64,000 bases of DNA from Blasia pusilla (taxonomy: Eukaryota). The stretch is from NCBI GenBank assembly GCA_050084515.1, contig CM114271.1, positions 33,294,001 through 33,358,000 of the forward strand, written 5' to 3'. Position 1 is the first letter of the stretch. Every line of letters begins with the position of its first letter. Below the pieces are notes generated by a model that searched no databases, was not told the origin of the DNA, and saw nothing but the letters and a program-made list of their open reading frames with translations. The translations under genes and the position numbers were made by a program. Positions 3,484-64,000 of this stretch are shown here, piece after piece.

Positions 3484-4524
3484 TTTCACGACCCTCATAA
3501 CCAAATGAACACCAAAAAGGCGCCAAGCAGAACATCAGAACTCAAGTAGACTCACGCTGCCATGATCGCACTTTGGAGAGGCTTTTCGAAGGTCTCTTGG
3601 AAAAGTCCAAGAGACGAAACGTGGAACAGAGTTGTGTGTTTCATGCATTAGTGGTCGCGACCAGGAAACCTAGACCAAACGCGAATCAAGATAAGTTGAG
3701 TTGAGACTTGAGATGAGTTGAGTCTTAGAAGGTTGGTTGCCAAAGAGATGAGAACCAGTTTTGGAACACGACTAGCGTTTGAGGAATTTGGTTGTGTTTA
3801 GGACCATCATTTTTATCTCCAAGATGCATTTGGGAAAAATATTAATGCGCTGGAAAGCTTATCTTGAGACTTCTAACACACCAAAGATCTCAGCAAACGC
3901 ATAAGTATAGGATGAGATATTGGCAAAAAATGACTCTGAGAGCAATCGGGTTGAGGGCCAATTTGAGGGGCCCAGCTATCTTTCCCTAAAGTTAGGGAGA
4001 CCCCAAAGATCCCCAGAAGTACTAGTAAGGGGGAGTTTCTACGAGGATTCTCGGAACACGAACCCCACTTTGAGCACCAAACGGCGTCTCAAGGACACGG
4101 GATGGAACGGGAGTTTGGCGTTGGAATTCGAAACCTTAACTTGATGCAAGGGAGTGAACTTTGTACGCCACTCTAGGATTCCAACCCTTGATTCATTTTT
4201 TTTGAGTCTCGGTTAGGGAATCATTGGATTTCCATTAGACAGTTAGAACCGCCAAGTGCAAAGCGCCGTTTGAGGTTCCTGAACCAACCAGAAAGTCTAT
4301 CCCAAGTCTTTCAAGACTTGCCTATGTTGGTAACCATGAAACTTGGAAAGTTGAGCTTAATGAGAGACCCAGATGATAACTTGGAGAGTTAGCCCATTGA
4401 TTGATCTAGACTCGACTAACTAGAGTGTGTGTTTGGATGCATATCAACGTTGAGAGCGTGTCTTACTGAACGCACGCTTCCGCAACAACAAAGATTAACA
4501 TTCAAGAAGAGTAGGCGCACGACA
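3484..4524 (+). repeat. 5' LTR of chromovirus copy 1
   Basis: ~1.04 kb, homologous to the LTRs at 5753, 12077, 16808 and 23217. Starts tttcacgacc (decayed TGTCGCGACC), ends gcgcacgaCA. Left flank is CCAAT. Confidence 0.92.
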
Positions 4525-4526
4525 CC

Positions 4527-4537
4527 TGGTATCAGAG
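4527..4537 (+). promoter_or_regulatory. Primer-binding site (initiator tRNA-Met type)
   Basis: TGGTATCAGAG 2 nt after the LTR end, the canonical plant tRNA-iMet PBS. Confidence 0.88.
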
Positions 4538-5244
4538 AAAATCCTCGGTGAGCGTGAACTTGGGGTTGTTTAAGTTCTGGATGTTTGAGAAGAGCTCAAG
4601 GAGGGAGACCTCGATGCTCGAGGAGGAACGCAAGAGACGAAATGCCATTCATGGGAATGGGGCGTGCTCGGAAAGTGAGCAAGTTTCTAATGGAACTCAA
4701 ACTTTACTTTGAAGCACAAAGGGTAGAGGAGCAGGACAAGGTGACTGTAGCAGTCATGTTTCTGAAGGATCCCGCTCTCCACTGGTGGATGGCTCATCGC
4801 AAAGAAGATTTTGGCCATGGAAGAACTTTGAGTTGGGGAGAGTTGAAGGTGCTGATTGGTAACTGATTCACTCCGAAATATCAAGAGTATTGCAATGGCA
4901 TGAAGTTTGTAAGGTTGCGGCAAAGCAGGTCCCTTAGCGCTTATGTGCAAGAGTTCAATGAACAAATGAGCTCACTTTCCACGGATAAGTTTACAAAGAA
5001 GGTGATCTTCTTAAGTGGACTCAAGCCGACCACCAAAAAGGCCCTCTTTCGTATGCCTCACATTCCATAGATGTGCGCGGAGCTTCTGAGGCTGGCGGGG
5101 CGGATAGGGGACAATGAAGTCCAAAACCAAAAATCCTTTGAGCCGAAAAGTTTTTCTAAGTTACCAAAAAACAAAGGGGCATCCAAGAGGGTTTGGAATG
5201 GGGGTGAGCACGACCATAGAGGGTCTCTTGCCCCAACAGCAAAA

Positions 5245-5372
5245 TGTCGTGCGCATACACATCGTTATACAACATACATCATTGTCATCGAATATACACA
5301 CAAACACGCACGATCCCATGCTAACTCATTGCATCCAAACAATGAGACAAGAAGTACTAAAATATCTCCAAT
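5245..5372 (-). repeat. Terminal repeat B2 (~128 bp) of the MTase retroelement
   Basis: Direct repeat of 13203-13330 (tgtcgtgcgcatac...aatatctccaat). Confidence 0.9.
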
Positions 5373-5752
5373 TAAAGTAAGATCCAATCTCTCTCTACAC
5401 CATCTCACACCATAGCTCTCAAAGGTGTGCACTCTCTCTCATGTCAAACCAAACCCACTCTCCTAATGAGAGGCTTGGGTTACACTCACAAGGCAAGGGA
5501 CCATAGCTTTGCCACCTCATGCTAAGAGGTTCAACAAAGAGAGAATGAGCTCTCAAGCTCTCTCTCCTGGAGGTATACCCCTCCCCTCACCCAAGCTCTC
5601 TCCATGGTAACCTATTCTCCCAAGTCACCTCCTTGGCTCTTGACCCGATGTAGGACGTCAAGGGCCACTTACCAAAAATAGCAAATTGATCATATACTCA
5701 AAATGGTGCTTAAGGGAAAACCTGCTCTCTCAGGTTTCCCAGGGCCTCAGCA

Positions 5753-6769
5753 TGTCGTGCGCCTACTCTCCTTGAACGTTAATCTTGTTTGTTGCGGAAG
5801 CGTGCGTTCAGTAGGTCACGCTCTCAACGCTGATCTGCATCCAAACACGCACTTTGGTTAGTCGGGTCTTGGATCAATCAGCGGGATTACTTTCCGAGTT
5901 CTCATCTCGGACTCTCTCTTCAAGCTCAACCTTCCTAGTTTCGCGGTTTCCAACACGGGCAAGTCTCGAAAGACTTGGGACAGACTTTTCAGTCGGTTCA
6001 AGAACGAAACGGCGTTTCGCGCCTAGCGGTTCCAACTGTCCGATGAACATCCAATGAGTTCCTCACCAAGACTCGCACAAGTGAATCTCGGGTTGGAATC
6101 CAAGTGTGGCATACAAAGTCCACTCCCTTGGATCAGGTTTGGGTTTCGGGTTTCCGCGCCAAACTCCCGTTTCATCCGTGCCTCAAACGCCGTTTGGCGC
6201 CCAAAGTGGGGTTTCGTTTCCCGAGACATCTCAGAGAAGGTACTCCCCTTACTAGTACTTCTGGGGATCTCCGGGGCCCCTACATTTAGGAAAGACACCG
6301 GGCCCCTCAATTGGCCCTCAACCCGATTGCTCTCTGAATCGTTTTCGGCCAATATCTCAGCCTGTACTTATGCGTTTGCTGAGATCTTTGGTGCGTTGGA
6401 AGCGTCTCAAGATCAGCTTTCCAACGCGCCCTTAGTTGTCCCAAACGCATCTCGGAGCTCAACGTTATGGTCCTAAACACAGTCAGATTCTCCCAAACGC
6501 TAGTCATGTTCCAAATGGTTCTCACCTCTTTGGCAACCAACCTCCAAGACTCAACTCATCTCAAGTCTCGCTCGCGTTTGGTCTAGGTTTCCTGGTCGCG
6601 ACCACTAATGCATGAAACGCACAACTCGTTTCGCGTTTCGTCTCTTAGACTTTTCCAAGAGACTCTACCAAACGCCTCTCCAAAGCGCAAACCTCGCGGC
6701 GTGAGTTCCTTTGAGTTCGATGTTTCGCATGCGCGTATTTGGTGTTGTTTGGTTATGAGGGTCGCGACA
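5753..6769 (-). repeat. 3' LTR of chromovirus copy 2
   Basis: Adjacent to the PPT; near-identical to 12077-13108. Confidence 0.95.
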
Positions 6770-7459
6770 CTCACCCCTCCTTAGAAGGTTGATGTCCTCA
6801 TCAACGCAAACCTTATTGATGTTAAGTTCTGGGAAGCCGACCCCTTAACACAGAATCGCGTTCTGGTAGCTAACCCGCAATTCCTCTTTTGGCTTAAGTC
6901 TTAGGTTTGTCGTAAAGACTTAGACTTATTAGCTTCGCTTTCGATGAGCCTAGACTAGTTCGCCAAACTAATCTAACTATCAAAATAAGCTCACTAAGTC
7001 TGCAACCTAACACTTCACTCACTATTTGTAAACAACCGCCTGTCTACCTAGCCAACTCGTACTACTTTTGGGTCACCTGTATTCCACCTAGGCGCGTCAC
7101 TAAGTTCAGTCATGAAACATGAATGAGATCACCACAAACCCCAAGACAGACTCATCTCGCTTTCGCCGACATTAGGGCGAGCCCAAATGCTAGTACTTCA
7201 ACACTTGGTCCTGATCTAGATGCCTTATCTGAATACAAGCTCTCACCTCAAATACTCATTGTTTGGTCTCCTTGACTTACATCCTAAGCATATGAAGAAC
7301 TACTCATTGCCTTGCACAAACCAAACTCAAAATTACAATACAAGCATCGAATCTCCAAATCCATGTCTTCTTTATTGCAACAACTAAACCTTTCTAGTTA
7401 CAACGGGTTATCGGCCCAAGCTTTCCGGTCACAAGTTATGTCCATTGCTTCACCATGTA

Positions 7460-10400
7460 CTAACGCACGTGCCTTTCTTGCATCCATCTGAAGTCACGCA
7501 ATGCTTCTTGCGCATGTTCTAGATCCGCCTCCGCAATCCAAGTCGCCTCTTTCACATGATAGCCTTTCCACTTGACCAAGTACTCGTACTTGGTGGCCCT
7601 ACGTCTGGAACGCAGAATAGTCTCAACCTCAAACTCTGGTTCCTCATTTCTGATGACCGGTTGTGGTCTCAACATCCTCCTTCGCTCCGGACGCACATTG
7701 TCTTGAAGATACTTCTTCAATAATGACACATGGAAAGTCGGGTGAATCTTGAACTCGATTGGCAGCTCCAACGTGTACACATCCTCAAACGGCTTTGCCT
7801 TGATCACATACTGTCCAAAGATACTTGGTGACAATTTATGAACAATTCTTTCGGAAGAGTGAGATTCTTAACACTCAACCACACTTGTTCCCCAACTTGG
7901 AAACTCACATGGCGCCGACTTTTGTTAGCATGCTTTACGTACCTTAGTTGAGCCTTGGCGAGACTTTCTCTCGCTCGCTCTTGTCGTTCGTGCATTTCCA
8001 CTAACAAACATTCCGCCGTTGCTTGACGAGTGTGTGTCGATGTATTGCCCTTCGAAAGAGCTAAGTCAAGAGGCCCTTCTGGTTCTCTTTGATACGCCAG
8101 AAGAAACGGAGATTCTCCGGTTGCAGAATGCTTAGTCTAGTTGTAACAATACTCAGCCATACTTAACCACTTGGCCCAATCTCTTTGGTCTGCACTCACG
8201 TAATTCCGTAAGTATTGGTTTACGATCGAGTTTACTTTTTCCGTTTGCCCATCCGTTTGAGGATGGAAGGCCGTACTAAAGCTGAGTTTGGTCCGGAACC
8301 TCCTGAATAGATGTTTCCAAAAGGCACTGGTAAACTTCGGATCCCGATCGGACACAATGCTCCTAGGCAATCCGTGCGCACGCCACCAACCATCCAGGAA
8401 TAGTCGGGAAGTCGCGAGGCGTCCGAGACTCTCTCGTCGGCACAAACCTCCCAACTTGCTAAACCGATCAACTATCACAAGTATAGCGTTGTATCCCTCG
8501 GATTCGGAAGACTCGTAATGAAATCCATGCTAATGCTTTGCAAGGGTCCCTCCGGATTGGCAAAGGATGAAGTAAACCTTGTTTCTTTGCATAAGACACG
8601 CGGGTTCGCCTGGCAGTCACGCATGTTTTCACATATTGAGCAACATCTTCCTTCATGTTGGGCCGGAAGAACCTCTTAGACAAAACAAAGAAGAGTGGAT
8701 TTCTCCCTTTGTGTCCCGCCAAAGGTCCATCATGACATTCCACAAACACCTTGGTCCGTAGCTTGCCTTGGCCTACATAGATCCTACTCTGCTTAAACCT
8801 TAGCAAGCCGTGTCTCAAACTCAGATTGGCCACCTTCTCGCCCCGCTTTAACTTCCCAAGGTACTCCCTCGCTTGCTCATCCTTCATGTATCCTTCACGA
8901 ATCCTTCTTTCCGGTCTGTTTCATTAGGGAACATTGCTCTCAACACTTGTGTCGTCGATGGCATGTGTTCATCCCTGCGACTTAACGCATCTGGAATGAC
9001 ATTGTCTTTCCCCGGCTTGTGGATTAGCTCCACATTCATCAACGCCAAGGTATCATGCCACCGAAGTTGTTTTGGCGTCACGCGATCCTAGGTCTCAAAA
9101 TACTTGAGCGATATGTTATCGGTGAATACTCGAGTCTGTGAAGTCCCAAATAGTGACGCCACTTCCTCAAGCAATGAACCACCCACAAACAACTCTTTCT
9201 CATGAGTAGGCCATCTCCTTTCGGTGTCGGTCAACTTCTTGCTTTCGTATGCTCTGGTCTCCTTTTGCACCAACATTCTGCAATCGCGAAATCACTAGCA
9301 TCCGTGTGCACCTCGAACGGTTGTTCAAACTCCGGAAGTTTGAACTGTTTCTGAGAGGATCTCTTTGACTCGATTGAACGCTTTATCCACTTCCTCGGTC
9401 CATGTAGTATTGGCAAACTTTGCGGTCCAATCCGTGAGAGGTTTCACTATGCCCGAAAAATTCTTCACGTATGTCCGTAAATCGACGACTCCGATGAACC
9501 TTCGCATCCCTTCACCGTGGAAGGCGGTTCCCATTCGCAATCGCGCTCACCTTTTCCATGTCTGGACTCACTCCATCCGCATCGACCACATGTCCCAAGA
9601 ACTTGATCTTCGTCAAACCGAACTCACTCTTATCCGCATTCGATATCTGACTTGTTCGCCTAAGTTTCTCAAACACCGTCTTCAAATGTCGGCGTGCTCC
9701 TCTAGTGTTTTCGAATAGATGAGTATGTCATCTATATAGATGATCACAAACTCATCCGTCTCCTTGTGAAAGATGGAGTTCATCAAAGTGGTAAACGTCG
9801 AGGCGCATTACAAAGACCGAAGGCATTACTACAAACTCGAACGAACCGTATCTCGTCCTCTGAGCGGTCTTCTCTACATCCGCCGGCAATCCGAATCGAT
9901 AATATCCTGATTTCAGGTCAATCCGCTGAAATACTTGGCACCTGAAAATCGATCAAAGAGGTCATCCATCCTCGGTAGAGGATAGTTATTCCTTATCGTC
10001 ACTTTATTCAGCGCCCGATAATCAACACAGAGTCTCAACTTCCCATCCTTCTTCTTGACAAAGAGGACGGGCGCCCCATAAGGTGACTTGCTCGTTCGGA
10101 TGTAACCCCTCTCTAGGAGTTCACCCAACTGTTTCTTCAACTCAGCAAGTTTCTCTTGATTCAACCTATATGGTGCCTTTGAAGGTGGTTGAGATCCTGG
10201 TATCACCTCAATCTTATGATCAACCGCTCTATGTGGTGGCAACTCAGTCGGAAGCTCCTTAGTCAACACATCTTCAAATTCTTTCACAACTCTCTTGAGT
10301 GTTTCAAGGATCTCCTTGAAGCTGAGTTCTGATCTCTGCATCTTGCGCTTGCATCATCCTCTACTCGTCTCATCAAGCAAAGGAATCCTTCCTCTAACTC

Positions 10401-12017
10401 GCCAAACTCGTCCTCGTGATGGCGTTCACCAACTCCGTCTTTCTAGGCACCTCACGAACCAATCGACATCCGTCCGTTTGCCGTAACCAAGACGCTTAAC
10501 CTCAAAGGTCTCCGCCTCAGTTCCACCTCATACGCATCCAAGAACGTGTTCCCCAAGACTCGTCGATACCGTCCATCTAAATCTGTAAAATTCTCCTTCA
10601 ACTCAAATACTCGCATCTCACAACTAGCCCTAAAACCAGATCGATGTCGGTGGGATTTTCCTCCCGCGAATCCTACCCTAATGGGTTCATCCGCTTTGGT
10701 GGTTGGCAATCCCAACGTTTTACGATTCTCGGACTCAAGAATGAGTGCGAAGCACTTTGTATCAACGAGCAACATCACATCGCGATTAGCGATCTTGGAT
10801 CCTAGGTAAACCAAATTGGGCGTTCTCTTGGTGACTCAGAGATGTATCTAGATCTCCCTCCGATAAATGCTTAGCGGCAAACGCAATCATACTCGGTTTA
10901 CTAACCTTGGGCCTCACACATTCCTTAGCCATATGCCCGGGTTCGCCACAATTATAACAAATCACTTTGGCATTCGTTGACTTCGTAAACGGCGGCCTCT
11001 TCGGCCAGCGTTGAGTTCCACTCGTTTTTGGCTGAGGAGAGACCCTCCGTGGTCGCGCTCACCCCCATTCCAAACCCTCTTGGATGTCCCTTTATTCTTC
11101 AGAACTTAGAAAAACTTTTTGTCTCAAAGGGTTTCGGGTGTTGGACCTCATCGTCCCCAATCCGCTCGGCTAGTCTCAAGAGGTCCGCGCACGTCTCTGG
11201 GATGTGAGGCATACGAAAGAGAGCCTTCTCGGCACTCGGTTTGAGCCCACTTAGGAAGATCACCTTTTAGTATGTTCGTCGTGGAAAGTGCACTCATGAG
11301 CGCACTAAACTCTCACATAAGCACCAAGTGATCCACTGGCGCAACCTCACCACCTCCATGCCATCGTGGTACTCCTGATATTCCGAGTGAATCGGTTCCC
11401 AATCAACTCCTTGAAATCTTCCCAACTCAACGTTTTCCCACGACCTAGATGTTCTTTCCGGTGAGCCGTCCACCAATGGAGAGCGTGATCCTTGAAACGT
11501 GACCGCTCTGATCACCTTGTCTTGTTCATCTCGCTTTTGCGCTTGAAATAGAGTTCGAGTTCCATTAGAAACTCGCTCACTTTCGAGAACGCCCCATTCT
11601 TGTGAATGGCGTTGGCAAATTAGTCTTACAAAGCTTCTTGCCGAGCTAGAGGCTCCATTTGACTTGAATTCGAGATCACCTTACTGTTCAGCCATCTGGT
11701 CCGCCATCACCTTCATCAATCCCATCATTTGGGTATAAAAGGCCGGATCGTTTAAGTTTGGACCCGAAGGTCCCGCGGAAAGATTTTCGGTTGGAACATC
11801 CTCATGTATGCGGGACTCGCACGGGAGTCGCAAATTCCACCTCCGCTCTCGGTCCGTCATTGATTCGTCTCTTGGCTTCTTTGCTTTGACTCGCGGTTTC
11901 TCGGTTCTTCGTCCTTGGTCGCCATTTGTAAAGTCGTCGCCTTTTCTCAGATCTCCTCCTCGCCTCTTGCGTTCCTCCTCGGCGTCGCGGTCTTCCGGCT
12001 ACCTTGAGTTCTCCCAA
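7460..12017 (-). pseudogene. Frameshifted gag-pol of chromovirus copy 2 (gag-CCHC-PR-RT-RH-INT-chromodomain)
   Basis: CYNCGEPGHMAKEC ~10920-10960; PR ~10450-10814; RT 9913-10341 ([28 protein letters not shown]); RH (VHTDASDFAI); INT (IVSDRDPKF, HPQTDGQTE); chromodomain 7460-7640 (FEVETIL...YLVKWKGY...ATW). Confidence 0.93.
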
Positions 12018-12076
12018 ACGCCCAGATCTTCAACGACCCCAAGTTCACGCTCATCAAGGAATTGCTCGATACCACG

Positions 12077-13108
12077 TGTCGTGCGCCTACTCTCCTTGAA
12101 CGTTAATCTTGTTTGTTGCGGAAGCGCGCGTTGATGAGGTCACGCTCTCAACGCTGATCTGCATCCAAACACGCACTTTGGTTAGTCGGGTCTTGGATCA
12201 ATCAGCGGGATTACTTTCCGAGTTCTCATCTCGGACTCTCTCTTCAAGCTCAACCTTCCTAGTTTCGCGGTTTCCAACACGGGCAAGTCTCGAAAGACTT
12301 GGGACAGACTTTCTGGTCGGTTCAAGAACCTGAAACGGCGTTTCGCGCCTAGCGGTTCCAACTGTCCGATGAACATCCAATGAGTTCCTCACCAAGACTC
12401 GCACAAGTGAATCTCGGGTTGGAATCCAAGTGTGGCATACAAAGTCCACTCCCTTGGATCAGGTTTGGGTTTCGGGTTTCCGCGCCAAACTCCCGTTTCA
12501 TCCCGTGCCTCTGAAACGCCGTTTGGCGCCCAAAGTGGGGTTTCGTTTCCCGAGACATCTCAGAGAAGGTACTCCCCTTACTAGTACTTCTGGGGATCTC
12601 CGGGGGCCCCCTACATTTAGGGAAAGACACCCGGGCCCCTCCAATTGGCCCTCAACCCGATTGCTCTCTGAATCGTTTTCGGCCAATATCTCAGCCTGTA
12701 CTTATGCGTTTGCTGAGATCTTTGGTGCGTTGGAAGCGTCTCAAGATCAGCTTTCCAACGCGCCCTTAGTTGTCCCAAACGCATCTCGGAGCTCAACGTT
12801 ATGGTCCTAAACACAGTCAGATTCTCCCAAACGCTAGTCATGTTCCAAACTGGTTCTCACCTCTTTGGCAACCAACCTCCAAGACTCAACTCATCTCAAG
12901 TCTCGGCTCGCGTTTGGTCTAGGTTTCCTGGTCGCGACCACTAATGCATGAAACGCACAACTCTGTTTCGCGTTTCGTCTCTTAGACTTTTCCAAGAGAC
13001 TCTACCAAACGCCTCTCCAAAGCGCAAACCTCGCGGCGTGAGTTCCTTTGAGTTCTGATGTTTCGCTTGGCGCGTATTTGGTGTTGTTTGGTTATGAGGG
13101 TCGCGACA
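12077..13108 (-). repeat. 5' LTR of chromovirus copy 2
   Basis: Adjacent to the PBS; near-identical to 5753-6769. Confidence 0.95.
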
Positions 13109-13202
13109 CAACAGGTCATCCTCAACCTACTGAGCGTGTCCTCCACTACTCCCGAAGGCGCTCTACTAGATCTCACCGATCTATCCTAAAAGACGTAACA
13201 AC

Positions 13203-13330
13203 TATCGTGCGCATACAAATCGCTACACAACATACATCGTTGTCACCAAACACACACACAAATACGCACAATCCCATACTAACTCATGGCATCCAAACAA
13301 CGAGACAAGAAGTACTAAAATATCTCCAAT
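13203..13330 (-). repeat. Internal repeat B1 of the MTase retroelement, preceded on the minus strand by a polypurine tract
   Basis: Copy of 5245-5372. Minus-strand TAGGGGGGACG (13331-13341) lies directly upstream. Separated from A2 by a 2-nt spacer (13201-13202). Confidence 0.88.
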
Positions 13331-13517
13331 CGTCCCCCCTAGCTGGTGGTTAAGTCCCTCTAACTCCAGATAGCCATCTATCCCTACCTACCATGACATA
13401 CATCTCTCAGACGCTAAGAGCAAGAAGGCCGGGTGCTCGTGTGGCCCCATTGTTAGTCGCCTTTTTGTCATCCATGTCATAGAAAAAGTCAAAATTGAAA
13501 CCTACCTAGTATCTCCT

Positions 13518-13665
13518 CTATGTACATCTGGGACACATCCATTGTCCCTGAGAAATCCTGGTGAGAGGTGGCGTCAAACATGTCATAGGCCAACCTCTCC
13601 AACATCCATCATAGACTAGCATCGTGGCCGCACCACGGGCAGAATCACACAATATACAACGCAAG
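13518..13665 (-). other. PHD (C4HC3) zinc finger at the integrase C-terminus
   Basis: CILCDSARGAATMLVYDGCWRGWPMTCLTPPLTRISQGQWMCPRC matches the PHD consensus CxxC...LxCDxCxxxxHxxCLxPPLxxxPxGxWxCPxC, with two ligands mutated (C>Y, H>P). Confidence 0.85.
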
Positions 13666-16600
13666 CCTGCAGGAACTACTGCTAAGCTTGGATCTACTGT
13701 ACCATCAATGTTAGGAAGGTGACATGGCGTACAATTACGCACATGGTCCTTCCATACCATACCATCGCGTCCCTCAAACAAGAAAACACCGGATGGAAAA
13801 ATATCACGCACTCTCAGGATAGTGGGCCTTGCAATCACATCCAACGTCGTCGGTGCCGTCTGTTGCAAGTAGACATAATCTCCCTGATGAAACCTCCGAA
13901 TAGTTGGTCGATAACCACCACCCCGAATAGTCGCATACCTCAACGTATCCCGATGCTGCACAATCGCCAAGTTCTCGAATACCATGGGCATCACTCTCCG
14001 AAACAACTCAGCCCTCTAAGAACATGCTCGCATCCATACATCTGGGTCATCAAGGTCCAGCACCTCACCAGCATCTCGATGAATGGCCATAGGTAAATCT
14101 GGCTATGGGCCATAAAGTAGCAAGTACGGTGAAAAAGACGCTAAGGATGCCTGCCTGCTGAATCTGTATCCCATTGCCAACCAAGGCAACAAGAGGTCCC
14201 AATCTCCTAGGTGACCTCTCTGCAAGCCATACTTGCGTAAACCCCTCTTCACCGTCTACACAACTCTCTCCGCTAATCCATCCACCTCATGATGATCTCG
14301 CGAAGTCGTGCGATGGTCGATCAGCGCCTGATCACACAAGGCCTGGAACTCACCGTGAAACTTAGTACCCTGGTCTGTCAACACCTCAGTCGGTGCGCCA
14401 TAATGACTCAGCACTATGTCAAGGAAGGCATAAGCTACTCCCTCACTCACTTTGTCAGGCAATGCAACCAACTCAATCCACTTCGAGATCTGCTCGACCA
14501 TCACCAACACATAACGACTGTGACACTCCGTCAAAGGCAAAGGTCCTGCAAAATCCAAACTCGATCTATACCCTAAGCCCATGATCGATAATGGATGCAA
14601 CTGTGGAGTCGGAGCATTGAACCATGCTTGGACCCGATCACACACCATGCACTTGGCAACAAACTGCTGAACGTTAGTCTGCATGCCTCGCCACCAATAC
14701 TGAATCTGGAGCAAGCTGTTCGTCCGCTTCATCCCAAAGTGACCCAACTCCTCGTGGGCATGCTGCACTAGTCGTGCTCTTTATGAAGGGTGCGACACTA
14801 CGCGTACTCTGCCATCCTCCCAAATCCTCAAAACATGTGTCCCCTCCCAACGGAACCGTCTGGCCCGTTGTAGGATCCGATCCTGCTCTCTAGCACCCAC
14901 GGTGCTCGCAACGCTGCCAGTCAGAAGGTACTCCAAGACTACTTCATCATCATGAATATCTCGGCCATCTGTCGTCTCCTCACTGGCCTCACCCTCCAAG
15001 GACTCTCCACTAGACCTCACCATCAAAGTCTCCACACTCTGGCTCTCCATAGCCAACATGTCTAAATAGGCTGACGCGTACCATCCTGGCATTAACTCCT
15101 CATCACTCTCTCCATGCCATCGAGTTCCAGTCGCATCTTGTTGACTCGGGCATGGGTTAAAACTCAACCCATCTGCATCCTGGTTGAGCGTCCCAGGTCT
15201 ATGTACCACCTGAAAATCATACTCCTACAACAACAGAGCCCATCTCGCAAGCGTCCCTTTAAGCTTGTCGGACTCCATCAATCACTTCTGTGGTTTCCGA
15301 ATAAGTAACCCTTGAAATGTGCGACAGCCCAGACTACAGCCAAGCACTCACCCTCATATGAGCTCTACTTTGCCTCTGCAGTGTTGTTCGAGTGGCTAGC
15401 ATAAGCCACCACAAACTCTCTACCCTCATCATCATGGTGGATGAGCACCGCTCCAAGCCCCAACATGCTCCAATCTGTGTGCAACTGGAAAGGACGCCCC
15501 CTGATCAGTCTCCTCAAGATGAGCGTGGACGTCAACCTGTCCTTGAGCAACTGAAATGCTCGCTCCTGCTCATCCCCCCAATGCCACTTGTGATCCACTT
15601 TGTTTAGCAAGGTCAGCGGCTTCGCAATCAAACTAAATCCCTTGACGTACCGCCGATAGAAGTTTTCCAATCCCATGAATGCGCGAACACGGCTCACATT
15701 TATAGGACGTGGAATGCGTGAGATGGCCTCTACCTTTGTCTGTTGAACACCAAGGCCCCCTGGGTATATCGTATGACCCAAGTACTCAATCTGATCGTAG
15801 AAGAACTTGCACTTGCCTAGATGTAGCTTCAGCCCATGTAATTGCAATCGTCGAAACACCTCCTCAAGATGTCGCTCATGCTCCTCAACCGTGGCCCTAA
15901 AGACTACGATGTCATCAATATAATACCTAGCAAAATCCAGACCAGCCAAGATCCTATCCATGAGCCTCTGAAACTCAGCCGAGGCGTTCTTTAACCCAAA
16001 TGGTAAGAATCGCCACTGGTACAAACAATCCTTCCCATGAGGATCGATGCCCCAAAATGCCATCTTCTGCCTGTCCTCCAATCTGATAGGCAGCTGATGG
16101 TATCCGGCTTGCAAATGCAATCAACTGAAAACCTTTGCATAACCAATCGCATCAAAGATCTCCTCAGGGGTGGGCATGGCATACCTATCGGACTTCGTTT
16201 GCCGATTGATAGGTCGGTAATCCCCACACATCCGCCTATCCGTCTAGTTGCCATGCACATCCTTCTTGGCGAGCATGACAATGGCAGATGCATACTCCCC
16301 ATGCGACATCTCCACTAGTCCTGCTCCAACCAAGTCCTGGCTCCTACTCTGAATCAGAGCCCTCCCCATATCACTGTACCTGTAGGCTCGTCGGAAGATC
16401 TGCGTATCACTCGAAAACTCAATGCGGATCCCCGGTCCCTTCAGCGTATCCAAATCCTCCATGCTAAATGCAAAGCAGCTCCTATAACTCTTGAGGAAGT
16501 GATGTATTCGGCGCCGCTCTCCTCCTCTCAACTTAGGGCCCATATCTGGCTCCCAAGTCTCCATCGTGACTACGGTAGGACTCGCCGGCGCGGATATCGG

Positions 16601-16807
16601 TGGTTGCTATGGTGCAACCCCGTCTCGAACAACAACACTCGACCACTCTCTTGCACCCAACTGCAAACTCTGATCTCCTCCACATACAGTGCTCAGAACC
16701 ATGCTCAATGTTGTGGCTATCATCTCCTGGCATACCTGCAAAACATCCCAAGAAGTCCAAGGGTGTCTCTCTCAATCTCCCCTGGTGTGTCAATCTCCTC
16801 ATGTCTC
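13518..16807 (-). pseudogene. Decayed pol of the MTase retroelement: RT, RNaseH, DDE integrase, C-terminal PHD finger
   Basis: ORFs 16244-16564 and 15365-16120 (GYHQL, FLPFGLKNA, YIDDIVVF, LHTDWSMLGLGAVL); 14256-14768 (AHEELGHFG, CMVC, LDFAGP, TDQG, GLAER); 13518-14006. Confidence 0.92.
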
Positions 16808-17811
16808 TGTCGCGACCCTCATGACCAAACAAGTGCCAAGCGGAACATCGGAACATTAGCGGGCTCACGCTAAGATGGTTTGCGCGTTGGAGTTGTCTCA
16901 AAGAGAAGACAAGAGACGAGACGCGAGCGAGAAGTCGCGTTTCAGATGTGATGGTCGCAACTCAAAAACCTGGACCAAATGCGGAATGAGACTTGAAAGA
17001 AGTCGAGTCTAGGAAGTGGGTTGCCAAAGGAAAGATCCGGATTTGGAACGCCACTTGCGTTTGAGAGTTTCCGACTGTATTTATGGCCATAACTTTTAGC
17101 GCCAAGATGCGTTTGGAGAAAATAAGAGTGCGTTGGAAAGCTTATGAAGAGCCGGTTCAAACACATGAAAGATCGCTGCAAACGCATAAGCAGCAGCCGA
17201 GATACGACCCGAAAACGACTGTGAGTGGAGTCGGGTTGAGGGCCACAATGAAGGGCCCGAACCTCTTTTCCCAAAGGGCAGGGGTTATTGGAGAACCCCA
17301 GAAGTACTAGTAAGGGGGAAGGTCTCCGAGAGTGCTTGGAACCCAAACCCCACTTTGGGCGCCGCGGGCGCTCAAGGGCATGGAACGGAACGCGAGTTTG
17401 GGCGTTGGGTTGGAAAACCTGCACCAAGTCCATTGAGGCGATTTTAGACATCCCTCTTGGATTTCACGCCGCGACTCAATTACTTGGGTCTCGGTTCGGA
17501 ACTCACACAAGGACCGTTGAATAGTTGGGATCGCTAGGCGTGCAAGTCTTGCATTTTTGAGATCCCTGGACTAACCAGGAAGTCTGTTCCAAGTCTTGAA
17601 GGACTTGCCATGTGTTGGGAGCTAGGAACTAAGGAAGGTTGAGCTTGATGAGACGCCGAGTTTGGGACTCGGTGGGTTGGAACGCCGGTTGGCCAAACCC
17701 GACTAACGAGAGTGCGTGTTTGGGTGCAGATCGGCGAGGAGTTCGTGACCTACTAAACGCACGCTTCCGCAACACTAAAGATTGACGTTCAAGGAGAGTA
17801 GGGGCGCGACA
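16808..17811 (+). mobile_element. Solo LTR of a diverged chromovirus subfamily
   Basis: TGTCGCGACC...GGCGCGACA, ~1 kb, similar to the other chromovirus LTRs. Perfect 5-bp TSD GTCTC (16803-16807 and 17812-17816). Confidence 0.94.
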
Positions 17812-17904
17812 GTCTCGCCCCCAGCCACTGCCTCCACCGTCTTGGTAGGCATGGGGCTCACCAACGCAACTACTGTGATCTGTCGCGATCTCATCCAACG
17901 CTGC

Positions 17905-18704
17905 TCAGCCACTCCCAAGCTGAAGATCCATGTCAAGCAGTTCAGGTCCATCGCCTGACCTAAGACATGGCGTCATGATGCCTCTGATACTGACGGTACT
18001 GCCGTCACTCATGTGGGAAATCCCATCGCCCACTCTCTCTTGTCGGTGTTGGGCTCCACCAACCTCTGAAGACCGGCCTCCTTGAATGCATATGAAGCAG
18101 GAAAACTCACAAACGTGGGAAAGGCTGCCCGCGGCTTGCCTACCCTGTTGACCACAGTCAACGGAAGTCGATCATCGTGCCTCACTGCCTGTGAGCGACG
18201 ACCTAGATCCACAATGGAATCCACTAACAAATGGGAGGGGCGCTCCACTCTCGCATATGCCCTCCGTAACACCGCATGGGGCACCAAGTTGGTCCATCAT
18301 AGACGCGGGCGATGGGCTCTAGAACCTACACTCGCCGCATCCAAGAACAATACTGGACCGATCCAGGCACGCTCTAGATGAGCACTCGTCACCACCCGTG
18401 ACCTGGAGTTTCCTAAGATTGGCACATTCTCCAGAATGTAGGCTGGAGAACGAGACTGGTGCTCCTGCAACTGCCGTAAGACCCTCAACATCTCCCAAAA
18501 CAACTTGGACCGAGTGTCAGCCAACCCGCTGCCTCGTCCAGCACTCGATTTGCCTTGACATGGCCAACCGGAAATCACCAAATCAATGGTGCCTAACCGG
18601 TCTAAGTCATGCGCCCCCAACAACGAAATATCCCTCGGTAAGGAACTCTGGTACCCTTGTACCGCGCATGCAGACAATAAGTCAGGAAAACATAGGCGTA
18701 ACTG
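17905..18704 (-). pseudogene. DNMT3-like C5 cytosine DNA methyltransferase domain (motifs IV-X) within the retroelement pol
   Basis: IDLVISGWPCQG (motif IV, catalytic PC), GLADTRSKLFWE, YILENVP (VI), DAASVGSRAHRPRL*W (VIII), REWAMGFP (IX), R(*)RHVLGQAMD (X). Contains in-frame stops. Confidence 0.88.
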
Positions 18705-19201
18705 CACCATCTCACACCATAGCTCTCAAAGGTGTGCACTCTCTCTCATGTCAAACCAAACCCACTCTCCTAATGAGAGGCTTGGGTTACACTCACAAGG
18801 CAAGGGACCATAGCTCCGCCGCCTCATGCCAAGAGGTTCAATAAAGAGAGAATGAGCTCTCAAGCTCTCTCTCTTTCTCTCCTTGAGGTATACCCCTCCC
18901 CTCACCCAAGCTCTCTCCATGGTAACCTATTCTCCCAAGTCACCTCCTTGGCTTTTGACCTGATGTAGGAGGTCAAGGGCCACTTACTAAAAATAGAAAG
19001 GTGATCATATATTCAAAATGGTACTTACCTAAAATAGTAAGTTGCTCAATATGGCTCCAAATGAACCGAAACGAAGGGGAAACCGGCTCTCTCAGGTTTC
19101 CCAGAGCCTCAGCAGGTAATCCTCGACCTACTGAGTGTGTCCTCCACTACTCATGAAGGCGCTCTACTAGATCTCACCGATCTATCCTAAAAGACGTGAC
19201 A
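18705..19201 (-). repeat. Terminal repeat A1 of MTase retroelement copy 1
   Basis: Matches 5397-5752 plus 13114-13200 and the reverse complement of 58524-~59000. Fused directly to the MTase by a deletion. Confidence 0.9.
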
Positions 19202-20734
19202 GAAAGGAGTGGAACTCAACGGAAAGCCAAGAGGGTCAACATTCTCAAAGTCACCAAACGCCAAAGTGATTTACTACAATTGTGGCGAACCCGGGCATAT
19301 GGCTAAGGAATGTGTGAGGCCCAAGGTTAGTAAACCAAGTATGATTGCGTTTCCTACTAAGCACTTATCGGCGGGAGATCTAGATACATCTCTCCAAGTC
19401 ACCAAGAGAACGCCCAATTTGTTTTACCTAGGATCCAAGATCGCTGATTGCAATGTGATGTTGCTTGTCGATATAGGTGTTTCGCACTCATTCTTGAGCC
19501 CAAGAATCTTGAAGGCATTGGGATTGCCGTGGGATGCAGAGTATTTGAGTTGAAGGAGAATTTCAAAGTTTGCGACATGGACAGAATCAATGGAGTCTTG
19601 GGGAACACGTTCTTGGATGCGTATGAGGTGGAACTGAGGCAAAGACCCTTGAGGTTGAGCATCTTGGTTAATGGCAAATGGACGGACGTTAGATTGGTTC
19701 GTGAGGTTCCTAGAAAGACGGAGTTGGTGAACGCCGTCACGAGGACGAGTTTGACCGAGTTAGAGGAAGGATTCCTTTGGTTGATGAGACAAGTAGACGA
19801 TGATAGAAGCGCAAGATGCAGAGATCAGAACTCAGCTTGAAGGGGAATCCGTGAAACACTCAAGAGAGTTGTGAAAGGATTTGGATATGTATTGACTAAG
19901 GAGCTTCCGATTGAGTTGCCACCACATAGGGCAATTGATCATAAGATAGAGGTGATTCCCGGATCTCAACCACCTTCAAAGGCGCCATATAGGTTGAATC
20001 AAGAAGAATTTGTAGAGTTGAAGAAAAATTTGGGTAAAACTCCTAGAGAGGGGTTACATCCGAACTAGCAAGTCACCTTATGGAGTGTCCGTCCTATTTG
20101 TGAAGAAGAAGGATGGAAAGTTGAGACTCTATGTTGATTGCCCGGCACTGAATAAAGTGACGATAAGGAATAACTATCCTCTTCCGGGGATGGATGACCT
20201 CTTTGATCGATTCTCAGGTGCTACGTATTTCAGCCGCACTGAGCTAAAATCAGGATATTATCAGATTCGGATTGCCCAAGCGGATGTAGAGAAGACTGCG
20301 TGTAGGACAAAATACGATTTGTTCAAGTTTGTGGTAATGCCTTTCGGTCTTTGTAATGCGCCTCCGACGTTTACCACTTTGATGAACTCCATCTTTCATA
20401 AGGAGACGGATGAGTTTGTGATCATCTACATAGATGACACTCATCTATTCGAAAACACTAGAGGAGGATGCTCGACATATGAAGACGGTGTTTGAGAAAC
20501 TCAGGGCGAACAAGTTGTATGCGAATGCGGACAAGAGTGAGTTCGGTTTGACAAAGATCAAGTTCTTGGGACATATGGTTAGTGCAGATGGAGTGAGTCT
20601 AGACATGGAGAAGGTAAGCGTGATTTCCGAATGGGAACCGCCTTCCATCGTGAAGGGGATGAGGAGGTTCATCGGAGCGGTCAAGTTTTACCGGACACAT
20701 GTGAAGAACTTTTCGGGAATAGTGAAACCTCTCA

Positions 20735-58523: not shown

Positions 58524-59589
58524 TGTCACATCTTTTAGGATAGATCGGTAAGATGTAGTAGAGAGCCTTCGCGTGTAGTTGAGGACACACTCAAGAGGTC
58601 GAGGATGACCTGTTGAGGCTTTGGGAAACTTGAGAGAGCATGTTTCCCCTTCGTTTCGGCTCATTTGGAGTCATATTGAGGAACAAACTATTTTAGGTAA
58701 GTACCATTTTGAGTATATGGTTGACTTTCTATTTTGGGAAGTGGCCTTTGACCTCCTACATGAGGTCAAGAGCCAAGGAGGTGACTTGGGAGCAGAGGTT
58801 GCCATGGAGAGAGTTTGGGAGAAGAGAGGAGTATACATCAAGGAGAGAGAGCTTGAGAGCTCATTCTCTCGTTGTTGAACGTGTTGACACAAGGCAGTGG
58901 AGCTATGGTCCCTTGCCTTGTGAGTGCAACCCAAGTCTCTCATTAGGAGAGTGGGTTTGGTTTGATATTGAGAGAGACATGTGAGAGTGCACACATGTGA
59001 GATGTATAGTGTTGTGAGAGAGATTTCATCTTATTTTACAAAGAGAGAATTGAGAGGGTGAGAAAGCTCCATGGGAGAGCTCGCTAGTTGCTCGATATTT
59101 GGTGCAGGTTGGGGACCGTGTTCCCCACTTCATGGCTTATGGGAGTGCTCACGGGAGCAAGAGCCGCGCTATTTTGACGTTTGTGTGTCGATTTTTCATG
59201 TGAGAGAGTGGCGCGCGAAAGCGCTACCCAATTTTTTATAGGGATTGAGTATGGGGGCGGGTTGCCCCATGCCGGTGCTCTCAGGAGCACCATGTAGCTT
59301 GCTGATTTGTGCAGGTTTTACATTTTCGTTGGGAAAAATCAGTGCGGAAGTGCTGCCAAAATTTATGTAGGAGAAGAGACATTGGGATTTACAACAGTCC
59401 CCTTCAATATTTATTGGAATGTTTGATTCAAAATATTTTTAAAATCATCGTAGATCGTAAAGTTGTGCACGCTGTGCAATAGACAATGCATGATTTGGAG
59501 CTGCGAGCAGAAAGTTATGGCCAATTTGGCAAAACTGCCATTGTTAGGCAATTTTTAGGGTAAAATTGTTCAAACCGTAAATCTTCCAC

Positions 59590-59750
59590 CTTCAATGGTC
59601 CGCCATCAATGGTCAACCGTCACCATCAACGATCCGCCATCAACACTTCACCGTCACCATTGACGATCCACCATCAACGGTCCACCATCACCGTCAACGA
59701 TCCATCGTCGCCGTCTGTCGTTGACCTTTGACCGTCGACCGCCGCTGCCT
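59590..59750 (+). repeat. Degenerate minisatellite (ccatcaacgg/tccgccatca-type units) in the retroelement leader
   Basis: Repeated ccatcaa(c/t)g(g/a)tcc / ccgtcaccat motifs. Confidence 0.6.
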
Positions 59751-62700
59751 CCTACCGCCTCTCAGAGCCGCGTTCGGCCGTTGTCCACCATTGGTTGCCA
59801 TTGCCACTATTATCGAGCGGGCGATCTTCCACGATGGCCGTTGATTCTCTGACTTGCGCCGCCACCACGTTCTTTGTTGTGGCCGTCACCGTCATCGCAG
59901 TTTTGTCATCAATGAATAATGGTAGGTGAGCTTGGATTATGGTGTTTGAGTTTTTTATTTCATTCTGCAATGTTTTGATTGGTAGTCGCTCAACGACAAT
60001 CGAGTACCACGCTGTGACGCCTGTAGCCACAACGTATCGTCGATTGCTACGCCGTGCCGCTCGTGACCGCACCGCACCGTCTTGATCACGGAGCCGCTCC
60101 TTCACTAAGGAGTAGAGCGTCTGTATTGCTGATTGAGGAGGGTATGACACAGAGTGCCGCATCCCATTATCGAGTGCCGTGCCATTTTGTAGTCGTTTCC
60201 GTGCCGTACCGTACTGCTGGATCCGCACCGTATATTGAGGAGGCTTGAGCAATTTCAGTTCGCGAGGAGTACGACTTGCTGATTGGAGGAGTTGTCTTCA
60301 CGATGGAGTTGGGGTCGAGATTTGTACTTGTCGAGGAGTGACATCGACATTATTGTCATGTTATCCATTTTGGTCTCTTACCCTGCACGTATGAGGGATT
60401 TCCGGGTATTGGGAAGTTATTTGGGATATTGTGCTAATGAAGAGAGCATCGATGATGTATGGGTTTAGGGGACATAGACTTGTGTGGGATGTCGTGTTGA
60501 TGTAGTTGATTTGCCGTACCATGCCGTTGGTTTCCGCAGAGCGCACATCTCAGTGAGAGAGTGTAGATTGAGTGCCGTATGTTAGATTGACGGATTGAGT
60601 GATTACTCGCGAGGTTGAGAGTGATCGCATGAGAGGGGCACGAGGGTCATCACTGCGTCCTTTTGGGACTTTGAGAGGCAAGGAGATGGAGATGAGAGTA
60701 GCTTTAGAGAGTTTACCCAGAGTGGTGCGAGGTTTCAAGAGTCTCCACGTGAGAGACCACCTCGATCTCCTTCTATGTCGTCTTTAGACGAGGGGGAGAG
60801 TGTGAAGGAGTGTGCTAGTGATCCACTGCACACATTGGGTGGTCCTACCAATTGGGCGTACGAGATGGACGACCGGGGTAGAGGACCACATAGGCTTTCG
60901 GGTGCTATAGGCACTATAGAGTTACACGACTTCATTGCGGAGTTTAGGAGTTGGTGTGACTCACTGCAGGCTATGAACTCCAGAGAGTTTAACCCGTTTA
61001 CAACATGGAACGGTATGTTCCAGCATTTAGAGGGGCCACCCATGGACGATTAGTATGAGTTCTCCCACAGATATGCCCAGGAGATTGAGGCATGGTGACT
61101 CTACTATGACCCACACTATATGTCATGGACGAAACCGTTCCTAGATGAGGAGGAGGCGTGAGGAGAGGCTACTTCCTCTTCCACTAGTGATGTTTTAGGA
61201 GGGGTCACTTGCACTGGAGCTGTTGCACCGTCTAGTCGGGTTCGTCCTAGGTTCAACCCCATGGTTGAGTTCTTCGCTGAGTTGAGGGCAAGCCACCAAG
61301 GGGTACGGACGGAGAAGTTACGGAGCATCCACGACTTCTAGAGGCAGCCAAGTGAGAGTTTGCATGAGGCCTGCACCCGCTTGCGCTAGTTGATTAATGT
61401 CACTTAGGGGTGACAGAGGCTTAAGCTATCCAATCATGGTATGCGATGCTAGACTGGACCTGCAGACATGGGTGCAGGAGGGGATGCTTTGTATGAACAC
61501 CTCCCCTACATTGAGGGATGTTTTTAGGACTGCCGAGAACATTGAGCGCAACATGGCGGAGGAAACCGTAGCCACCATGGATTCTGGGCGAGAGCAGTCA
61601 CGATTGCCTCCACCACCAAAGCAGTAACGTGGATTCCGAGATAAGTCTGTAACACCACGAGCTCAGGGAGAATACCAAGAGGCTCTGCCATAGAGACTTG
61701 CGCCTTCATATGCGGCTCAAAAGCAGCCGCCTACGATTACTTGTTGGTCATGTGGTGGAGCCCATCATCAGCATGATTGCACTCGTCAGGGTCATAGGCG
61801 CGTGCCTTAGCATGGAGGAGGAGATGGTGCTGCACCAGGAGGTTATCAGAGTGACTATTGTCAGAGGCACGGTCACACACGCACGAGATGTTTCACCTTG
61901 CACCCTCAGTTACGTCCGGACCAAGGGCTAGAGAGGGCACCAGAGCGAGTTGCCGGTCTGGGTTGGCCTAGAGGTTGTGCATCAGGTGGTCTCATTGGGG
62001 GACGAGGAGTTGGATTTGCCCGAGAGATGGTGGAGTTGCCCGTGGAGGAGGTAGAGTCCCACCACCTAGATGCGTCGAGGGAGACGCCATGCGTGAGCCT
62101 CGGATGGCTACTCAGATACAACAGCTACATTAGTAGATTACTACTATGGCATTGAGGTTACCCGATGCCAGATCCGTGGCATTGACGTCTAATGGAGCCG
62201 CCAGAGATATTTAAGATCTTGGTTGGATGTGCGAGGTTGCCCAGATGGAGGCCGCGCAGTTGTTACGCGTGGAGGAGCGGGAAAGTTGGATCCACAACGA
62301 GGGGAAGCCAGGAAACAGACCAAGATTCCTCATTCTTTTACGTTGTCCGAGGTGATGAGGACCCCATCGATGGATCCTGAACAGAGTTCTCGGAGAGTTG
62401 GTGATCTTGTTGGTGTGCAAGCACATAGATTGATGGGAGAAGCGAGTGTGATGACTCCTATTGCTGATGCCCTGGAGGAGCATCTGTCAAGCACGTTGTT
62501 GGGGGCGGCCACTGTTGTGTACCGCCCTCCTTTGTTCTCTGCTTTCGATGTTATGACGTTGGAAGGTACGCCCGCTGAGTTTTTCCGGCTGGCTGCGGCG
62601 CTCTGGGAGCGTGGAGTTGGAGTTCCTGCATCACGTTCAGAGGTGATTGCAGAGGAGGTGATGGACCTGCCCTTGGAGCTTATGCTCGGGCCATCCACTT

Positions 62701-63574
62701 CAAATTCATGGCAGGCTGCGGTTGCTAGGATAGCGGAGATGCCTGCTAGACCCGCGATAGAGTGTGCCATGGCTTCTCCTAGTGTTGTTTTGCTGGATAA
62801 CCAGGGAGAGGTATTCCAGTTGGTGAGTCCAATAGGTAGAGCTTTTAGTCCACAGTGCGTCTTGTTGGATTCAGGAGCGCAACCTGTGATGTTGGGGAAA
62901 GCATCATTCAGAGGATTGGGCTTGACGAGAGCCAATATGGAGCGTTGTCCATCCCGGATACAAACATCCTTGGGTGGAGTGAGTACCATACAATATATCA
63001 CCCGACATAAGGTTGTGGTGAGGATTCATCTCGGACACCCTACAGATGAGTCTGTGGTGCGAGCCAAGGCGATAGTGACCGATGCATAGTCCTACGACGT
63101 CTTGGTTGGTGGAGCAGTGTTGTACCCAATGGGGTTTTCCCTAGATTATTGGGAGGAGTCAGCGTCCTACAGACCAAGATGGCAGTTAGGTGATGGGCGC
63201 CTTAGATCATTACCCATTCGATTTACAGGTGGAGTGATTGAGCGACGGCCACGAGAGATGGAGACCTTAGCATCATTTAGCAGCGCCATCACTTGGCCTA
63301 GTGATTTGATTGAGAGACATGCCCATGTAGAGGACACTCCCGTTCTTGACATTTCTATGGAGAGGAGTGTCATGGTTGCCGCATCAGTCCTTGGAGGAGA
63401 GATGCCGCTTTGGGGCTCAACTGAGGAGCTTCGATGCTTAGCCACTGAGCATCTGCAGACCACGTGGAGCGAGATGTTTGCACTAGAGCGTGACGGGTCA
63501 GAGGAATATGAGGTAGCCAAGAGTGCTATGATGACACCCTTGGATACCATACCCCTTATGTGGCGCATCCTAAA

Positions 63575-64000
63575 GGAGGGTATTCGGGTGTTGGATCTCT
63601 TTGGAGCGATCAACACTGGGTTAGCTTTTGTTTTGTACGCAAGAGTATGTGTGCAATAGTATCTGTATGTGGAGATTGATGATGTTGCGAGGCGCGCTTC
63701 ACTTCACCATGTGGCGCAGTTACGCCTCCGTTTTCTTGACTTGTTGTCTGCGTCCGCTGTCCACGGATACTAGAGTTCCCTACCAAGGGATATTTCATTG
63801 TTGGGGGCGTAGGACTTGGAGCGGGTAGGGGCCATAGATTTGGTCATTGCTGGTTGGCCGTGTCAGGGCCAATCGAGTGCTGGATGAGGTAATGGGTTAG
63901 GTGACACTCGGTCCTGGTTGTTTTGGGAGATGATGCAGATTTTGTGACACTTACAAGAGCATCAGTCTCATTCTCCAACATACTTTCTGGAGAATGTGCC
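63575..64000 (+). pseudogene. N-terminal part of the DNMT3-like C5 methyltransferase (motifs I-VI), copy 2
   Basis: GIRVLDLFGAINTGL (motif I), YLYVEID (II), RDI (III), IDLVIAGWPCQG (IV), YFLENVP (VI). Same frame as the protease-containing ORFs 62223-63659, with stops. Confidence 0.9.

Follow-up and report, generated by a model that had tools for sequence, protein, structure and literature searches.

Split direct repeats on a methyltransferase-bearing Ty3/gypsy lineage from Blasia pusilla and metagenome relatives

Introduction

Textbook long terminal repeat (LTR) retrotransposons integrate a linear complementary DNA (cDNA) through its own tips. DIRS-like repeats together with Gypsy domains were reported by de Mendoza et al. 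(2018) for KnitGypsy-Dnmt3 of Klebsormidium nitens (Fig. 4c legend, PMC5890265), the DIRS arrangement being given there as A-coding-B-A-B (Fig. 1 legend). Here we describe a family of this kind from a 64,000-nt stretch of the Blasia pusilla genome (GenBank assembly GCA_050084515.1, contig CM114271.1, positions 33,294,001 to 33,358,000; hereafter the window), which holds two copies of a Ty3/gypsy element with a DNA methyltransferase and split direct repeats. Going by the published description, KnitGypsy-Dnmt3 and the window family are both LTR/Gypsy elements with DIRS-like repeats and a Dnmt3-type methyltransferase inside Pol (PMC5890265). They differ in host, Klebsormidium being that of the former, whereas the methyltransferase fragment in the window finds its best protein matches in the liverworts Marchantia polymorpha and Calypogeia fissa, at ~65% identity, and in many metagenome proteins. 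The word-limited protein searches gave no match from K. nitens.

A preliminary description of this locus had regarded the layout as one that is not found on gypsy elements with a DDE integrase, a view that KnitGypsy-Dnmt3 makes outdated (PMC5890265). The main-text parts of that paper that were examined give no primer-binding site, polypurine tract, target duplication or mechanism for the Klebsormidium element, and our literature search, which drew on parts of the papers it returned, yielded no further DDE-integrase element with split direct repeats, nor did the name KnitGypsy-Dnmt3 turn up in a second paper. The portions consulted of the literature on Marchantia retrotransposons, including PMC11982613, contain no methyltransferase-bearing gypsy element. 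The family described here adds a member to a known but barely described kind, the layout of which has been noted once before, in an alga.

Results

Repeat layout in the window

Copy 1 of the element is read on the minus strand. A BLAST self-comparison of the window (E<1e-10, with repeat matches well beyond chance), combined with a reading of the joints, gives the order A1–ORFs–B1–nn–A2–B2, in which the ORFs are open reading frames and nn is a 2-nt spacer. Both the order and the coordinates agree with the preliminary description. From its 5' to its 3' side, copy 1 comprises the following features.

19202..19205: target-site duplication, 5' side, GAAA on the plus strand and TTTC on the minus strand
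18705..19201, minus strand: A1, the 5' repeat, starting TGTCACG and ~23 nt short of the true A end
18297..18725, minus strand: C5 DNA methyltransferase fragment, motifs IV-VI, PCQ…ENV (Pfam PF00145, E 1e-12; comparison with copy 2)
15365..16120, minus strand: reverse transcriptase and start of RNase H (Pfam RVT_1, RT_RNaseH_2)
14256..14780, minus strand: integrase, H2C2 zinc domain and DDE core (Pfam PF17921, PF00665; D, D and E with 35-residue spacing in the ORF)
13518..14015, minus strand: integrase C-terminus with a PHD finger at its end (Pfam PF00628)
13331..13350, minus strand: polypurine tract region …ACCACCAGCTAGGGGGGACG, abutting the first base of B1 and kept in relatives
13203..13330, minus strand: B1
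13201..13202, minus strand: GT, the 2-nt spacer that separates the end of B (…CGATA; in B2, …CGACA) from the start of A (TGT…)
13110..13200, minus strand: A2, first part, as far as the nested element N
5373..5752, minus strand: A2, second part, holding the self-primer-like ATTCTCTCTTTG at 5546-5535
5245..5372, minus strand: B2, ending …GCGCACGACA
5241..5244: target-site duplication, 3' side, AAAA on the plus strand and TTTT on the minus strand

A1 (19201-18705) and A2 (13200-13110 plus 5752-5373) are 92.6% identical over 326 nt, with a 47-nt stretch in A1 that is absent from A2, and B1 and B2 are 89.7% identical over 126 nt. The internal region closes with the polypurine run AGGGGGGACG at 13340-13331. 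Copy 1 had been claimed to be one inserted unit, and this is supported by the host gag, which, judged against a related element, is uninterrupted across 5244/19202. The flanks show a 4-bp duplication (TTTC/TTTT on the minus strand, one mismatch). Copy 1 is an old, broken member of a Ty3/gypsy lineage.

The second copy lies on the plus strand, and its 3' end is beyond the window. The part within the window consists of three features.

58524..59038, plus strand: complete A at the 5' end of copy 2, adjoining unrelated flank
59039..59050, plus strand: CAAAGAGAGAAT directly after A, a putative self-primer-type primer-binding site complementary to a segment of A
59051..64000, plus strand: leader and gag, a region resembling a protease (DSG motif; Pfam gives no match), then the N-terminal portion of the methyltransferase, cut off by the end of the window

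In agreement with the preliminary description, comparison of the copies shows that A of copy 2 ends at the exact point where A2 meets B2 in copy 1, and that the sequence beyond it is not B.

Ends of the element in relatives and in raw reads

Metagenome contigs were scanned with an alignment of the proteins matched by the methyltransferase fragment, which yielded 80 loci (numbered with the prefix L) of bryophyte-like relatives. Sphagnum fallax and Cymbomonas were added by a longer protein search, as were numerous proteins that have all of the domains; relatives thus extend over liverworts, a moss and a green alga. A and B were mapped in all 80 loci, giving 25 5' ends (~20 distinct insertions, judged by near-identical pairs in the tree) and 18 distinct 3' ends. 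The preliminary description had proposed that other copies be searched for A alone at their 5' ends and for polypurine tract–B–nn–A–B at their 3' ends. The first half of this holds without exception, as A stands alone in 25/25 5' ends, and in 24 of these the A end is followed by a common CTCAAAGAAC-type leader. The second half holds for 7 of the 18 3' ends, the other 11 having a single B.

The seven 3' ends with polypurine tract–B–nn–A–B or a remnant of it are those of L004, L015/45, L027, L074, L022/20, L034 and L037/48; that of L004 stops at the contig end, and L037/48 retains only part of A2 joined to B2. In a further 8/18, the polypurine tract and B are followed by flank. In the remaining three, truncated internal sequence is joined exactly to the B start (L067 at 7303, L039 at 5768 and L041 at 4607); here the polypurine tract is missing, and the breaks correspond to L027 element coordinates 5606, 8269 and 8389. 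Ordinary identical LTRs in other copies, which the preliminary description had held out as the finding that would tell against it, are contradicted by the counts at both ends (A alone in all 25 at the 5' side; B–nn–A–B in 7 and single B in 11 of 18 at the 3' side) and by the joints in raw reads described below. A conventional LTR consisting of A plus B, with B1 as a stray, was also considered and is rejected, as in none of the 25 5' ends is A followed by B.

The termini of the element are TGT…ACA (TGTCA…CGACA), and 4-bp duplications, the length of which the preliminary description had proposed to measure, were found in nine relatives in addition to copy 1. They surround both main 3' forms (CATA, AAGG, TACA, TGTT, TGTG and CACA, and three more with one mismatch or a damaged end). 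Such ends and target duplications are as expected of a DDE integrase. The joint between the B end and the A start always reads …ACA-nn-TGT… in the 6/6 relatives with this joint (nn being GC, GC/TC, GC, AC, AC and GC), which bears out the earlier reading of B1–nn–A2 as an end-to-end junction, and in the tree the A1 and A2 of L027, like those of L004, group as sisters. Its recurrence in independent insertions makes the layout a trait of the family and not a one-off.

Raw reads of the window's own species were available from two runs, ~1% of each, as binned tables, so that all counts are lower bounds. The methyltransferase family is highly repeated in these reads, and the A|B joint, at which A runs directly into B, occurs in hundreds of them. 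The X18 reads include at least 481 for the main A|B joint, with a 24-nt A end that is absent from A1 of copy 1, at least ~290 for variant joints and at least 817 loose ends. Loose ends also lead from the B end (at least 1,878) and from the A start (at least 960) into diverse flanks.

Reverse-transcription signals

Three signals that bear on reverse transcription are kept in both the window family and the metagenome family, despite their differing sequences: the polypurine tract, a self-primer pairing and a TATA box. The polypurine tract directly abuts the B start in 15/18 3' ends as well as in the window. The first 10-16 nt beyond A1 can pair with a segment of A located 170-176 nt before the A end in both families; the complementarity reaches 16/16 nt in L027 and 12/12 nt between the leader of copy 2 and A2 of copy 1, and is at least 8/10 nt in 21 of the 25 5' ends, at 169-171 nt from the A end. 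With TATAAA at position 138 and the segment used in this pairing at 170, the TATA box stands ~30 nt upstream of the latter. Similarly, A of copy 2 has a TATA-like GTATAC ~31 nt upstream of the self-primer-like segment at ~58863-58874. No canonical AATAAA was found in A or B.

The preliminary description was correct in that no tRNA primer-binding site adjoins A, and had missed a putative site of the self-primer type directly after it. We read this arrangement as a putative Tf1-like self-primer with its binding site directly after A1, in place of a tRNA primer-binding site. Because of the TATA box, the self-primer, the binding site after A1 and the polypurine tract before B1, the LTR in the sense of reverse transcription is predicted to be B–nn–A, in which the integrase ends would stand back to back as a palindrome. 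Inserted copies nevertheless run from A start to B end, which places the predicted integrase sites inside this LTR. The reverse-transcription signals and the integration ends thus disagree by one B length.

Coding content

The internal region is filled by a single polyprotein. Pfam matches in the window, L002, L015 and L021 give the Pol order reverse transcriptase–RNase H–integrase with a DDE (rve) core, whereas scanning of the window and the relatives ORF by ORF found no match to a tyrosine recombinase (PF00589); 10 further ORFs had no Pfam match. L002 contains a nearly open polyprotein, with two stops, comprising gag with a zinc knuckle, methyltransferase, reverse transcriptase, RNase H and integrase, in which PF00145 lies between gag/protease and reverse transcriptase in a single frame. 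Its Pol is 63-75% identical to that of copy 1. L015 combines an integrase core with a PHD finger, and the solved structures closest to the methyltransferase are DNMT3A/B/C (E 5e-11). The element encodes a Dnmt3-type methyltransferase and a PHD finger. The lineage is a Ty3/gypsy one that encodes gag, protease, Dnmt3-type methyltransferase, reverse transcriptase, RNase H, DDE integrase and PHD finger.

In two relatives, L053 (~12385-13195) and L075 (~10892-11774), an additional ~800-900 nt follow shortly after the polyprotein, at a shared position. This may mark the 3' untranslated region as an insertion hot spot or as the site of a variable module.

Damage, nested insertions and surroundings

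The layout of copy 1 was described correctly at the outset; overlooked were the methyltransferase, the PHD finger, a 5' deletion, a second nested insertion (a solo LTR) and the existence of many family members with a single B. The deletion joint is at 18705/18704, where the truncated A1 is fused to the middle of the methyltransferase, and ~4.7 kb is missing from the 5' end: the leader, gag, protease and the N-terminal part of the methyltransferase. This stretch corresponds to 59039-63711 of copy 2, after which 63712-64000 matches 18709-18421 of copy 1. Two other elements are nested in copy 1.

16808..17811, plus strand: solo LTR from a gypsy family that is unrelated and primed by tRNA-Met, flanked by a 5-bp duplication (GTCTC), with read joints from 16802 to 17812
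5753..13109 (end at 13108/13110), minus strand: full-length LTR element N, with 1-kb LTRs 97.8% alike, primer-binding site TGGTATCGAGC and duplication TGTTG/TGCTG

Neither is part of the structure of the methyltransferase family. Most reads of that family skip the solo LTR at 16808-17811, and element N splits A2. Reads of the solo-LTR family run beyond the LTR end into AGTGGTATCAGAGC, a primer-binding site of the tRNA-Met type. An origin of B as a relic of the N family was rejected, as the two have only the last 10 nt in common (GCGCACGACA) and their Pol proteins are 25-32% identical.

The reads also differ from copy 1 in a biased manner. Over window positions 13000-19400, the X18 reads show C>T at no fewer than 660 places and G>A at no fewer than 612, compared with 38-210 for the other types of change. 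Such an excess is as expected of long-methylated repeats that decay by deamination.

Copy 1 sits in a host element (3489-5244 plus 19202-20734) that is a relative of N. The other half of this host element is found at 23217-26887, oppositely oriented, and an array of ~340-bp tandem repeats (20735-22388) separates the two halves, an arrangement that suggests an inversion or two head-to-head elements. Further along the window, 27339-29525 contains several families of 100-300-nt direct repeats that are unrelated to the element. Next to copy 2, a 182-aa open frame on the minus strand (58042-58590, no Pfam match) reaches the insertion point, and may have been interrupted by the insertion of copy 2.

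Discussion

A probable joined-end route to the inserted form

The normal full-length inserted form of this family is A–internal–polypurine tract–B–nn–A–B. As the reverse-transcription signals and the integration ends differ by one B length, cDNA tips that have not been joined cannot yield this form. The best reading of the sequence still appears to be the unusual route suggested in the preliminary description, by way of a circular or joined-end form, and the inserted copy is most likely a permuted LTR–internal–LTR that would integrate from a joined-end intermediate cut at the palindrome.

Based on our findings, we propose that the RNA would start inside A1 and carry B1–nn–A2 near its 3' end, and that reverse transcription would give a conventional linear cDNA with B–nn–A as its LTR. 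In such a cDNA the integrase sites would not be at the tips but in the back-to-back palindrome (…ACA nn TGT…) inside each LTR. Joining of the two cDNA tips head to tail would create the A2|B2 joint, in either a 2-LTR circle or a tandem-LTR product made by reverse transcriptase reading around the end. The integrase would then cut this intermediate at the palindrome and insert it, so that the inserted copy would represent the two-LTR form opened at the palindrome of its left LTR. Copies with a single B could result from cutting at both palindromes or from a later deletion between B1 and B2. L067, L039 and L041, where a truncated interior meets the B start exactly, are what one would expect if the B start is a free cDNA tip available for joining. 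Cutting of this type has a precedent in the integrases of prototype foamy virus (PFV) and human immunodeficiency virus type 1 (HIV-1), which cut the palindromic LTR-LTR junction of 2-LTR circles (PMC1180852, PMC1905944). Taken as a whole, the explanation that the family form is made from a joined-tip cDNA opened at the palindrome is, in our judgement, somewhat likelier to be right than wrong.

Several observations weigh against this explanation. A symmetric 2-LTR circle should open equally well at its other LTR, yet the mirror form A–B–nn–A–internal–B occurs in 0/25 5' ends as against seven 3' ends of the observed type, a difference with a binomial probability of ~0.008 if both openings were equally likely. 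An asymmetry is therefore needed, for which the timing of LTR completion or a faster loss of the mirror form would be candidates. Across 6/6 relatives the A|B joint does not vary in length, a regularity that is surprising for end-joining and would accord with inheritance through RNA. Single-B 3' ends outnumber those with B–nn–A–B by 11 to 7, so that the 'normal' form is in the minority among old copies. Stop codons are present in every copy examined; L002, the best of them, has two in the part of its polyprotein that the contig covers, and the window's own B1–GT–A2 joint was not resolved in the binned read tables. Finally, where transcription starts, where poly(A) is added and that a joined intermediate forms are all predictions from sequence.

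Competing explanations

Two of these difficulties do not arise if the ends are regenerated in the manner of PAT and DIRS elements. The RNA would then run from inside A1 to inside or past B2 and would itself pass on the A2|B2 joint; the missing A start and B end would be copied from the internal B1–nn–A2 by overshooting strand transfers, and the integrase would trim both overshoots at the palindrome, with no circle and no end-joining. The layout is the same as that of PAT/Ngaro elements, the internal junction of which is thought to restore their ends (PMC7192593, PMC8969392). A constant length of the A|B joint in 6/6 relatives, and mostly so in reads, would follow, and the absence of the mirror form would call for no special pleading. 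However, this route offers no reason why, in two families with different sequences at the B start and the A end, B starts exactly after the polypurine tract and A stops exactly ahead of the self-primer site. It leaves the conserved self-primer pairing without a role, and it does not account for the three truncated interiors joined exactly to the B start. We therefore regard end regeneration as unlikely, although it is the alternative that survives best.

A composite origin would take A–internal–B as the basic element, the extra A–B being a separate solo unit that landed alongside or a product of unequal recombination between two copies. Copies of the A–internal–B type with their own 4-bp duplications are indeed common (8 plus 3 of 18), and A and B have ~2x the read depth of the internal region (a rough estimate), so that solo units probably exist. 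A unit landing alongside should, however, be separated by a 4-bp duplication and not by a spacer that is always 2 nt, and a single duplication encloses the whole A…B–nn–A–B unit. The sister relationship of A1 and A2 in L027 and L004 also speaks against it, and an RNA made from A–internal–B alone, lacking the first ~170 nt of A, would give a copy unable to renew itself. Since the spacer has 2 nt, one duplication surrounds the whole unit and the layout recurs, we reject a composite origin as very improbable. On the same grounds we reject the idea that copy 1 is a one-off tandem, deletion or mis-assembly product of an element with ordinary identical LTRs, which is scarcely credible even for a copy so rearranged (a 4.7-kb deletion and two nested insertions) and a window that does not include the 3' end of copy 2, in view of the same layout in seven distinct insertions from other assemblies, the A|B joint in hundreds of raw reads from two runs of the same species and the published layout of KnitGypsy-Dnmt3 (PMC5890265).

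Implications of the proposed joined-end route

If integration from a joined-tip cDNA is correct, the family would provide a natural system for integrase cutting of an internal palindrome. Material for experiments exists, given the many copies in the window's species and the relatives in liverworts, a moss and a green alga. We tentatively put forward a broader proposition, which we think somewhat more apt to fail than to hold: that these elements form a widespread green-plant lineage of DDE-integrase elements in which the integrase sites have moved from the cDNA tips into the LTR interior, and which can be renewed only via an intermediate with joined LTRs, either circular or with LTRs in tandem, that is cut at an inherited palindrome. 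Were this so, the family would make natural and obligatory use of the long-abandoned 'circle junction' route, and would have converged with the tyrosine-recombinase elements, in both cases alongside a captured methyltransferase.

Comparison with known systems

In its predicted priming, the window family resembles Tf1/Sushi elements and plant Tcn1, which likewise have no tRNA primer-binding site and carry, at the predicted RNA start, a segment complementary to the nucleotides directly after the LTR (PMC6317226). Their LTRs are ordinary and identical, and they carry a chromodomain, whereas the window family has permuted repeats, a PHD finger and a methyltransferase. The retroviral 2-LTR circle of PFV and HIV-1 shares with it a palindrome of integrase ends joined head to tail, which can be cut internally to give processed ends (PMC1180852, PMC1905944). 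In retroviruses this palindrome exists in the circle only; in the window family it would be built permanently and heritably into every LTR, with A|B as the newly made joint.

The repeat layout itself is that of PAT-like and Ngaro elements, which have the same split direct repeats A1–internal–B1–A2–B2 and an internal B1–A2 junction in which both ends of the element are present. A methyltransferase is also frequent in DIRS and PAT elements (PMC7192593), and the window family has one too. PAT-like and Ngaro elements use a tyrosine recombinase and make no target duplication (PMC8969392), in contrast to the DDE integrase, TG…CA ends and 4-bp duplications of the window family, in which no recombinase was found in the ORFs scanned. 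The joined-end route, if true, may explain why the same repeat layout occurs in elements with quite different recombinases. Layout and captured methyltransferase are paired repeatedly, in the window family, in K. nitens, in DIRS/PAT and in SymbioDIRS.

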